Sequence record: MN445185.1
Reading direction: 5' to 3' (one strand)
Length of the DNA stretch: 64,000 nucleotides
From: Escherichia phage vB_EcoM_EC001
This document shows, one piece after another, positions 47,100 through 61,485 of the stretch. Made by a program: the position numbers and the translations under genes. Position 1 is the stretch's first letter. Every line of letters begins with the position of its first letter. The notes under the pieces were generated by a model that saw only the letters and a program-made list of their open reading frames with translations, searched no databases and had not been told where the DNA came from.

Positions 47100-48302
47100 T
47101 TACTTAGTACCCGCTTCAGCTTGAACATCGTCGCGCGAGGTGAGGTTGTTGTTGACGTGAACAGCAGCCTGCACAACACCGCCATACTGTTTATGGAGGT
47201 AATTCGGGTGTGGGTTATCCGCAGCCGCATGGTTCGCCAGATTCTGGTTTGCCTGCGAAATTGCGTTGGTGTTGTTTACAACCTGAGTTTTAAGACTGTT
47301 GATTTGTCCTTGCAGGTTATCAATTTGCTGTTGGAAGTCTTTGCCCTGATTCTCAAGATCCGTGACGCGCTGATTTGTTTTATTCAGTGCAGACTGAAGA
47401 TCGTTAACCATCTTCTGTAATTGCAACACCAGAGAATTAAGGTTAGCTAATGCTAACGACATTTTCTGGTAATTTTGAGCAACCACGTTAAGCTGGTCGT
47501 TCCACGCGGCTAACGAAGCCACAATTGCATCGATGCGTTGCCCCAACGCTGTGTCTGCTGCTCTTAAGTCGCCGATATCTTTGATAGTGGCGTCAATGGC
47601 AGTCTGTACACTTTGAATCAGGGCACGAATCTCCGTCTCCGTCAGGCCATTAACCTGATGAATGTCGAGATTGTGTACGTTACCTTCGGCGTTGATGTGG
47701 GTATTTAAGGCGTCGAGGAAGTCGTTTTTCAGACCACCCAGAATACCTTTAATTTCTTCCAGCTGTACTGCAGAGCCGGAGTTAATCGCATCTTTAATCC
47801 CCGCGAGTACGGTAATGATATACTCAAAACCGTAGATATCGCCAAGGTCTTTATACGTCGGGGCGGATGGGAACGTATCGGGTACGTTTCGAAGATCCTT
47901 GAAGTCCACCACGCGGTCTTCAATTTTCAACGACGCAATCGCTTGTCGGATGCCTTCGACGTTCGCGGACTGAAAACCACCAACGACTTGCGCAGAGACT
48001 TCGATATCAGTAGGAATGGCCGAGTTAGTTACCACCACACCCATGACCACTTCGCGGTTCTTGGTCATTTTCTGATATGCAGTATGTGCAAAAATCAGTT
48101 CGTAGTCTGTACCACGTTTGTACGGGTAGACACCTGGTTTATTCGCAGCCGCCAAGCGGAAGGTATCCGCGTAGAAAGCTCCGTCAGGAAATGCAAAAGC
48201 CCGGTTAACTTTACCAGAACCTAACGTAATACGCCGCGTAACGGCGTTCGACGTTAATGTCCCGGTAAGGTCGAGCGGGTACTGATAAATGATTTCGGCC
48301 AT
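47100..48302 (-). CDS. Fibre-like protein with C-terminal coiled coil (400 aa)
   Basis: ATG 48302 with AAGGAG SD; N-domain (PLDLTG..FAFPDGAFY..GTDYEL) shared with the three giant genes; N/Q-rich heptad region. Confidence 0.7.
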   Translation of the reverse strand: MAEIIYQYPLDLTGTLTSNAVTRRITLGSGKVNRAFAFPDGAFYADTFRLAAANKPGVYPYKRGTDYELIFAHTAYQKMTKNREVVMGVVVTNSAIPTDIEVSAQVVGGFQSANVEGIRQAIASLKIEDRVVDFKDLRNVPDTFPSAPTYKDLGDIYGFEYIITVLAGIKDAINSGSAVQLEEIKGILGGLKNDFLDALNTHINAEGNVHNLDIHQVNGLTETEIRALIQSVQTAIDATIKDIGDLRAADTALGQRIDAIVASLAAWNDQLNVVAQNYQKMSLALANLNSLVLQLQKMVNDLQSALNKTNQRVTDLENQGKDFQQQIDNLQGQINSLKTQVVNNTNAISQANQNLANHAAADNPHPNYLHKQYGGVVQAAVHVNNNLTSRDDVQAEAGTK

Positions 48303-48349
48303 TGCCAAACTCCTTTGATTGGGGCTTCCTTGCCCCATAGCGCTATCTG

Positions 48350-60700: not shown

Positions 60701-61485
60701 AGACGCAGGATACTTGTCCCACCGTTTGCGTAACAGAGCATCCAATCGATCAACTCGCCTGGGTTTAACGTTGTTTCCGGTGGAATGCTCGGTAAACGGT
60801 ATTTTACCGCTAACGAATACGCATCGAATGTCGTATTCTGGTAAGATAACGAATAACGACGACGTGACGCGTTATACGTGTAGCCGCCAGTACCGTCGTA
60901 CGTCGCATACTGCTCGGATGTGATAAGCGTGACGCCGGCGCGATATTGAAGGTCTAACGTGTTACGAGCAATCGGGTCAACGCGACTGATCGCTTCACCG
61001 AGCTTAGCACCAACCGCAACAATGGCTTCCATCAACTCAGATTCGCCACGCCAGTTTTCCCAATCGAACTTAATATCGACCGGTGGGAAATATAAATCCC
61101 CAATGACATTATCCCATTGGCAGTCTACGGGATAGCGATCTTTATTCGCTTCTCGTTCTGCGGCGATCATTTCTGCAGTGGCTTCACCGATACCAATTGC
61201 ATGGTAATCGAGTGTAAAGCCACTCTGATATTTCGGGTTGGTAATCCACACGCCGCCGTGACAAACATGGCCAGTGCGTGCCATGCCCGTAACGTACGCA
61301 TGGGTGATGACGTAATCATCACCTAATGTTAATTTCTTGCCGCCACTCTTGACCACCAGGGATGTGGTATAAAAGGGGGCGTGTGCGGGGAACAGCATCC
61401 GGTACTTAGTACCGATCGGCGTTACCGCTTCACCGGTCTGCATATTCCCCGGTTCTTGATAGTGCGGGTCAGGGACGACAGCCAT
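57772..61485 (-). CDS. Giant tail-fibre-like structural protein (1237 aa)
   Basis: AAGGAG SD; N-domain with PFY..GDDYVITHAY. Confidence 0.75.
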   Translation of the reverse strand: MAVVPDPHYQEPGNMQTGEAVTPIGTKYRMLFPAHAPFYTTSLVVKSGGKKLTLGDDYVITHAYVTGMARTGHVCHGGVWITNPKYQSGFTLDYHAIGIGEATAEMIAAEREANKDRYPVDCQWDNVIGDLYFPPVDIKFDWENWRGESELMEAIVAVGAKLGEAISRVDPIARNTLDLQYRAGVTLITSEQYATYDGTGGYTYNASRRRYSLSYQNTTFDAYSLAVKYRLPSIPPETTLNPGELIDWMLCYANGGTSILRLQLKQRAIYLTLTTAIGSGSSNYSYTLTTGLTDTELAGDIELSVVRREGNGVYDIIVKTSKQTVNYSFNVDNPPSEFAPGYQKTDVAKWLKFKSGVNLNWWAGENDYVQIRSLPGAPAPDVNNDVYQLLVKYHQIVDKLYRDAPAHAHVPRKDNPHRDSWGAIRALENNGIASDATLVYGKTQPQLTDYVNNLLPKLSTLANKLLRLPAAAQSINGTFGMKPGLTSITSAVGTDESEGVGAQFTVDPRVIRFIGRDSQTVNAGNNPITWQGGANQLILYPDSRGLEFNGKKLLDPTTVGPYLPGNESGGDGLFYGTSTATVTINGNGIQSVPFICTFVPPESDDLGLMAVRLLATEFGDREDLAATPALIKKLDQQFTGKLVAVKSYINDMPLTSSIYIDKTNFGLSNVQNIPDVQLPISPLQQAELDKYAVVGHKHTSAAFGIKRATTTEFGLVQFGTVVDDATLALDGGVVIRQADAITEIEKVAKTVDSGASINIIRYGLPGTDIIENGITYTDWMVTIKANDYFVGREYKVPLSTFNLAELFPATHEDAEFGVYVDAAGDDGKYIIYENPNTAETETMTKIGSIITSETGVVFVEIRNVTRLGEFRELGEHIEDDNAHIRRSMTQAEFGFTYGTGGPVWSTGAPGTKRIDADWRYAQASSYTPMLKADYDPAADKWTFKTTSLSVTDYRFVHNTFPMFQNNGITATWTPLTATADSVLETVIGCCHHSATFMHRISVLVARTAGRITTPGGVSTYAGIAVNYGRAAQVVIGLNGVTGSGHDWTALNPSVRFSHTRTADGISFEGTINIDSKTINFELTLTATTKTLRYTLQSTGESWTEDLSTRLRPDYIDLTKLITDPSTPIYHGAGGLFSSDTEARLTYANLNTMPIKNRYYATFLDYAINYSGLNRARFFTGVVEAGSTINEMNSAMCNYSYSSFRPVDTGKIPLATHPSKMMTFNPQNTSGRTLIIRD

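Follow-up and report, generated by a model that had tools for sequence, protein, structure and literature searches.

Why should a phage carry four genes in a row whose products begin alike and end differently? The question is raised by a stretch of 64,000 nucleotides from Escherichia phage vB_EcoM_EC001 (sequence record MN445185.1; the whole stretch is called the window below). An initial annotation, made from the sequence alone, had marked positions 47100-61485 as four consecutive fibre-like genes sharing an N-terminal anchor domain. Homology and gene order now indicate that this cluster is very probably the Seoulvirus counterpart of the gp130 / gp131-135 fibre module of phage phiKZ.

The window comes from a Seoulvirus, that is, an SPN3US-like jumbo phage. 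Its 14.4-kb fibre stretch aligns over the full length with Escherichia phage vB_EcoM_Lh1B (97.0% nucleotide identity), Salmonella phage SaP7 (96.8%), and SPN3US (94.8%). By alignment, the four minus-strand genes are the orthologs of SPN3US gp167 (47100-48302; 400 aa, the minimal member), gp168 (48350-53533; 1727 aa), gp169 (53629-57759; 1376 aa), and gp170 (57772-61485; 1237 aa). The SPN3US records give the same four lengths, with gp171 divergent on the plus strand (61553-62815 in the window); gene order and spacers are identical as well, and the proteins match their SPN3US orthologs at 61-100% amino-acid identity per 100-residue block. SPN3US differs in the allele of one gp169 cassette, for which the window carries the type present in Lh1B and SaP7. 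The identical five-gene arrangement recurs in Proteus phage 7, Salmonella phage SPAsTU, and Erwinia phage pEa_SNUABM_29 (Ea29).

A program-made list of open reading frames (ORFs) holds longer forms for two of the four genes (412 and 1742 aa). The shorter starts are preferred because they agree with the SPN3US annotation, follow a Shine-Dalgarno sequence, and coincide with the start of the family alignment. The coordinates, sizes, and 12-95 bp spacing given by the initial annotation all agree with the present layout, in which the gaps are 47, 95, and 12 nt. It had also assigned an AAGGAG Shine-Dalgarno sequence to every gene; this precedes gp167, gp169, and gp170, but gp168 has TAGGAG instead.

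How alike are the beginnings? Alignment statistics indicate that all four proteins open with one common domain of ~160-200 aa. The pattern first proposed for it, P[FA]F[YE]...G.DY.L, is exact in gp169 only: gp168 has PFY and DYFL with a longer gap, gp170 has PFY and DYVI, and gp167 has GAFY. What stands is a core form, F[YFE]-x(8-24)-G-x-D-Y, which occurs once per protein in all four, 31-50 residues after the start codon. Elsewhere in the six-frame translation it has one stray match, and shuffled translations average 0.155 matches.

A rival reading is that the likeness reflects chance or composition. Pairwise identity among the paralogs is only 16-23%, and two of the six direct BLASTP comparisons (gp167 with gp168, and gp167 with gp170) are not significant; hhalign with 4-sequence profiles was no more sensitive. 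BLASTP does join the set through its N-termini: gp168 with gp169 (1e-23), gp167 with gp169 (2.6e-8), and gp168 with gp170 (6e-7). Profiles reach further. PHROG 2163 matches the N-terminus of all four proteins (1e-107, 2.5e-87, 1.3e-22, and 2e-14). A hidden Markov model (HMM) of 140 distant representatives, from which every close relative of the window proteins had been removed, matches the first 160-190 residues of gp167 (9e-41), gp169 (2e-23, match over residues 3-177; domain placed at 57280-57759, minus strand), gp170 (4e-22, residues 6-162; domain at 61006-61485, minus strand), and gp168 (2e-18, residues 19-184; domain at 52979-53533, minus strand). Run over the ORFs of the window, this leave-out HMM finds the domain in no ORF besides these four. 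Both profiles and phiKZ gp131 thus converge on the same N-terminal 160-200 residues in all four proteins, and together they rule out a chance or compositional resemblance, whose probability is negligible. The initial annotation had offered alignment statistics as the means of refuting the shared N-terminus; they uphold it.

The duplication behind the family is old. No nucleotide repeats link the paralogs, including any template/variable repeat pair of the diversity-generating retroelement type, so there is no sign of recent duplication or gene conversion.

What kind of domain is this? A HMMER scan of 1.84 billion cluster representatives (50% identity) returned 3980 carriers at E <=1e-3, of which 3126 reach E <=1e-10. 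Of the 150 strongest matches, 148 have the domain at residues ~1-200, within proteins that range from 206 to 1685 aa. The two exceptions (P0012 and P0125) were rejected as family members; they are multi-repeat proteins that match only W..I..P..FPP..H.H, a short fibre motif at the end of the domain. A domain that stays at the N-terminus while the length behind it varies freely is what marks an attachment module. Pfam holds no family for gp169, gp170, or gp171, only coiled-coil noise for gp167, and one sub-threshold "phage tail repeat" match for gp168. In a phmmer search of the PDB, gp168-170 had no match, and the hits of gp167 were again coiled-coil noise. The N-terminal domain of T7 gp17 gave no significant profile or fold match.

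Profile comparison identifies the module as the "gp131-like N-terminal domain" of phiKZ-type phages. The Seoulvirus N-domain HMM, searched against phiKZ, matches gp131 (1e-27), gp135 (1e-20), gp134 (4e-15), and gp133 (9e-12), each at the N-terminus. Single-sequence phmmer comparisons agree: all four window proteins match phiKZ gp131 at 2.5e-8 to 7.4e-7 (gp170 2.5e-8, gp169 4.7e-7, gp168 7.4e-7), and the best phiKZ match of gp167 is gp135 (9.8e-14). N-domain distances sort the family in the same way: gp167 falls in with the short proteins of phiKZ, gp135 being its closest, and gp168-170 fall in with gp131. Each genome has four N-domain paralogs. Moreover, the neighbour corresponds too: phmmer (2.7e-13) and synteny identify gp171 as the homolog of phiKZ gp130, and gp171 is 75-100% conserved per 100-residue block across Seoulvirus. 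The gene order is alike: in Seoulvirus a tandem paralog cluster runs divergently from the gp130 homolog, and in phiKZ gp130 lies on the minus strand, opposite to gp131-135 on the plus.

Work on SPN3US places these proteins in the virion. Papers from 2016 to 2023 group gp168, gp169, and gp170 under the name "paralog family C" and describe them as virion proteins of the tail that are low in abundance, phiKZ gp131-like, and missing or depleted in tailless particles (PMC5105663, PMC5694885, PMC10052503). All of gp167-171 were detected in SPN3US virions by mass spectrometry; gp168 is a tail protein scored essential (PMC5105663, PMC5694885), and gp171 is an essential tail protein (PMC5105663). The published family (Ali et al. 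2017, Thomas et al. 2016) lists three members, without gp167; by the domain comparisons above, gp167 is a full fourth member. Homology to phiKZ, the neighbouring gp130 homolog, and the tail-associated SPN3US orthologs together support the original description of fibre-like genes sharing an N-terminal anchor.

How would such an anchor work? In phiKZ, cryo-electron microscopy reveals six gp131-like N-domains and a six-helix bundle that anchor each fibre under gp130, a protein of the baseplate periphery; the published atlas (Nat Commun 2026) fits three copies of gp131 with gp133, gp134, and gp135, and counts twelve fibres per virion (PMC13250141). An AlphaFold2 monomer model of gp167 (85-sequence alignment; mean predicted local distance difference test score, or pLDDT, 78) shows how the shortest member is built. 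The structure prediction that the initial annotation had called for gives a confident β-domain (residues 1-110, pLDDT >90 for most of 11-110), with the motif of that annotation on core strands. A short helix follows (114-126), then a poorly predicted extended segment that bears the fibre-repeat motif (127-159), and a further helix (160-203). This last helix lies directly after the N-domain, as in the phiKZ fibre base, and is a candidate for contributing to a six-helix bundle. Beyond it runs a helix of 140 residues (222-361), likely a coiled-coil stalk.

In the favoured reading, that of a Seoulvirus counterpart of the phiKZ fibre module, each N-domain would consist of a small β-domain, then a short stretch that resembles the fibre repeat, then a ~45-residue helix. 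By homology with phiKZ, these domains and helices would pack into a multi-chain base under gp171, from which gp167 would project a coiled-coil stalk. The three long proteins share a proximal shaft of ~320 aa, with typical tail-fibre sequence motifs. Past the shaft they diverge, each ending in large distal domains that evolve fast; those of gp169 include predicted lectin-like β-sandwiches. Recognition of the host surface is most likely the task of these distal parts. The present comparisons establish the homology, the synteny, the constant placement of the domain at the N-terminus, and the gradient of conservation described below. Published work on nearly identical proteins supplies the virion and tail location and the scoring of gp168 as essential. 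The oligomeric state, the docking on gp171, and the binding of receptors are the inferred elements of the model.

Several considerations weigh against this reading. The phiKZ hexamer is a rigid-body fit of AlphaFold models, which its authors call a candidate (PMC13250141), into maps of ~4.4-4.6 Å that were low-pass filtered to 6 Å. The fibre model was not deposited and does not figure among the PDB entries that the paper lists (PMC13250141). Neither profile nor Foldseek searches found an N-domain structure in the PDB copies searched; a profile that included the phiKZ sequences retrieved only the W..I..P..FPP..H.H repeat of the tail collar fibre 9d93. The receptor role of gp167-170 is a putative one. 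Finally, phages recorded from different host genera, Lh1B (E. coli) and SaP7/JN03 (Salmonella), have one gp169 cassette allele in common, so that allele and recorded host genus do not go together.

The composition of the base is a separate question. The phiKZ proposal would be mirrored by a 3+3 hetero-hexamer, in which a gp167 homotrimer is joined by a single chain of each long paralog (gp168, gp169, and gp170), so that every fibre would bear three different giant host-recognition arms. Spectral counts per kDa from SPN3US virions are 1.90 for gp167, 1.41 for gp169, 1.08 for gp168, and 1.00 for gp170, compared with 0.93-1.29 for the 12-copy portal. The gp167 value is roughly 1.4-2.4x that of each long paralog, and the long paralogs lie near the portal. 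These counts and the N-domain grouping both fit three gp167 chains with one of each long paralog, and both are far from decisive; the 3+3 arrangement is a tentative proposal and, on present evidence, an unlikely one.

Alternatively, each paralog might form its own homotrimeric fibre or spike, much as multi-tailspike phages use a common plug for equivalent baseplate sockets; the N-domain would then be an interchangeable plug, and the base would contain one kind of chain. The phiKZ map speaks against this arrangement, having six N-domains per attachment site that were fitted with four different paralogs. So do the spectral counts, a rough measure, which put gp168-170 near the 12-copy portal and not at three times its value. 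Moreover, none of phiKZ gp131-135 tolerates transposon insertion (PMC12676376), which argues against redundancy and, alone, is no proof of a hetero-complex. Four separate homo-oligomers seem doubtful, but they are the main rival to a hetero-oligomeric base.

The two phages also differ. The phiKZ set has one long protein (771 aa, with a C-terminal seven-bladed propeller) and three short ones (~460 aa), whereas in the window phage three are very long (1237-1727 aa) and the fourth is short (400 aa). The His-x-His of the fibre-repeat motif is absent from the window proteins. The distal domains have no sequence or fold likeness to the seven-bladed β-propeller at the C-terminus of gp131 (Sycheva et al. 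2012); the modelled distal part of gp169 looks more like lectin-type β-sandwiches, a putative concanavalin-A-like lectin or galectin fold. A functional analogue has been proposed in the short tail fibres of T4 (gp12), which, as the phiKZ atlas authors argue, are likewise attached to the baseplate and mediate adsorption (PMC13250141). T4 gp12 is a homotrimer, however, and no sequence or fold relationship to the window proteins was found.

What lies beyond the anchor? The initial annotation had described an N-terminal similarity, and the anchor is indeed common to all four proteins, but likeness is not confined to it: gp168 (residues 199-514), gp169 (195-519), and gp170 (403-720) share a further ~320-aa region. 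Its matches include minor tail proteins of actinophages and, at a weak level, a "phage tail repeat" model. A smaller module is common to gp168 (1296-1417) and gp170 (765-883). In gp168, the N-domain (~15-185) and shared middle region are followed by variable stretches (~600-1300 and 1500-1700) on either side of the module. In gp169, the order is N-domain, helix, shared middle region, conserved trunk, and variable distal part. In gp170, a hypervariable insertion domain of ~200-250 aa (~163-400 or 410; 60256-60999, minus strand) separates the N-domain (~1-160) from the shared middle region, which is followed by the module and a variable C-terminal third.

Comparison with the SPAsTU and pEa_SNUABM_29 orthologs reveals a conservation gradient along these layouts. 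Both gp167 and gp171 are conserved throughout (75-97%), and gp168 and gp169 keep 66-90% identity over their opening 500-600 residues. Identity falls to 15-55% in gp168 residues 700-1300 and 1500-1700, gp169 residues 900-1376, and the last third and insertion of gp170; for the distal parts of gp168 and gp169 the range is 18-50%. The insertion itself (residues 201-400) is 15-26% identical to its SPAsTU and Ea29 equivalents, with flanks at ~77-89%, and is lacking altogether from one relative (P0032).

The gradient bears on a further reading, that some members, particularly the 188-kDa gp168, are structural components of the baseplate periphery and do not project as fibres. The SPN3US literature speaks of "baseplate/tail fiber candidates", and phiKZ gp131 was first placed at the baseplate periphery. 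Yet gp168 residues 600-1727 rank with the most divergent parts of the locus, at 18-50% identity to relatives, a pattern expected of domains that touch the host more than of a scaffold. The proximal region also carries the fibre-type motifs and the matches to actinophage minor tail proteins. A purely structural gp168 is thus improbable.

Variation is sharpest within gp169. Over residues ~854-1154 (54300-55199, minus strand), the nucleotide sequence is that of Lh1B (100% identity) and nearly that of SaP7 (98.7%). SPN3US and Proteus phage 7 match it at no more than 63-73%, yet in the flanks all four phages show 93-100% identity. By this pattern the segment is a clean cassette exchange within the SPN3US species. 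It falls in a β-rich part of the gp169 model whose best fold matches are lectin-like β-sandwiches, and is a candidate receptor-binding domain.

Are the four genes one late operon, as initially proposed? Their tight spacing fits co-transcription. However, the 95-nt spacer between gp169 and gp168 encodes a stable RNA element (53534-53631, minus strand): two stem-loops inside an outer stem, the second followed, in a terminator scan, by the U-rich tract UCUCCGUUUUAUUAC. Its predicted folding energy is -51.4 kcal/mol, compared with an average of -30.2 for shuffled sequences (z -5.96). The element is kept in SPN3US, SPAsTU, and pEa_SNUABM_29, with stem-preserving changes in the latter two, and no Rfam family matched it or any other part of window positions 46000-63000. 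It may terminate or attenuate transcription, or may stabilize the upstream RNA. Because this conserved double hairpin stands between gp169 and gp168, a single operon is unproven. Promoter searches do not help: the region 45000-63500 has 7 sigma-70-like matches, fewer than the 20.7 ± 4.2 in shuffled sequences. Phages of this family are known to use phage-encoded RNA polymerases. The deficit fits such polymerases, and the scan therefore says nothing about operon structure. (The 67-nt spacer between gp170 and gp171 contains TATG tetramers on both strands, a 4-mer without statistical weight.) Past the gp171 stop, a hairpin between an A-run and a T-run (62806-62864) looks like a bidirectional terminator between gp171 and convergent downstream genes.

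The window holds a second system with shared N-termini and variable C-termini: eleven plus-strand genes of the DUF7941 family (PF25613; 21644-38131). Seven are full-length copies (~265-303 aa; 21644-27721); four encode longer proteins that retain only the N-terminal half of the domain (27769-29181, 31138-32634, 34629-35948, and 35963-38131). The last of these also bears an adhesin domain of the T4 Gp38 tail-fibre type (PF05268, 9e-19). [quoted passage not shown] Judged by their size and by the numbering of adjacent genes, the eleven look like SPN3US "paralog family B", which the 2017 SPN3US paper tentatively assigned to the head. Directly after the Gp38-like gene comes an endolysin-type protein with GH108 and PG_binding_3 domains (38183-38836, plus strand), and after it a DUF1353 protein that bears the annotation of tail assembly chaperone (39125-39766, plus strand; the pair spans 38183-39766).

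Nearer the fibre cluster, directly downstream of gp167, are two tandem paralogous ORFs of 134 and 130 aa (46227-47034, minus strand), both matching PHROG 6085. The pair is annotated in Lh1B; SPN3US has at this place only the 111-aa gp166 and an unannotated gap. Position alone would suit a fibre assembly factor, a role that nothing else supports. Two adjacent radical-SAM proteins (42838-45073, minus strand; SPN3US gp163/gp164, PHROG 1802) stand between the fibre cluster and a DUF4376 protein (41662-42333). At the other end of the window, three consecutive plus-strand ORFs of 272, 267, and 270 aa (3759-6212) begin with a D12-class N6-adenine DNA methyltransferase (PF02086, 3.6e-54); for the second and third, Pfam gave no match.

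Together, these results place the cluster in a known family: its members in SPN3US, a well-studied model phage, are published, and since 2026 phiKZ has provided an account of what the family does structurally. The initial observation is therefore sound, though unremarkable. The present analysis adds the membership of gp167, shows how far the shared proximal region reaches, and points out the variable cassettes and the structured spacer. The anchor domain is widespread (~4000 clusters at 50% identity) and always N-terminal, and can thus serve as a marker for fibre genes of the Chimalliviridae type. For the SPN3US-like phages themselves, gp167-170 most likely set attachment to Salmonella, E. coli, Proteus, and Erwinia. 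The gp169 cassette, the gp168 C-terminus, and the gp170 insertion are candidate host-range determinants, of relevance to host-range engineering of candidate therapeutic and biocontrol phages.

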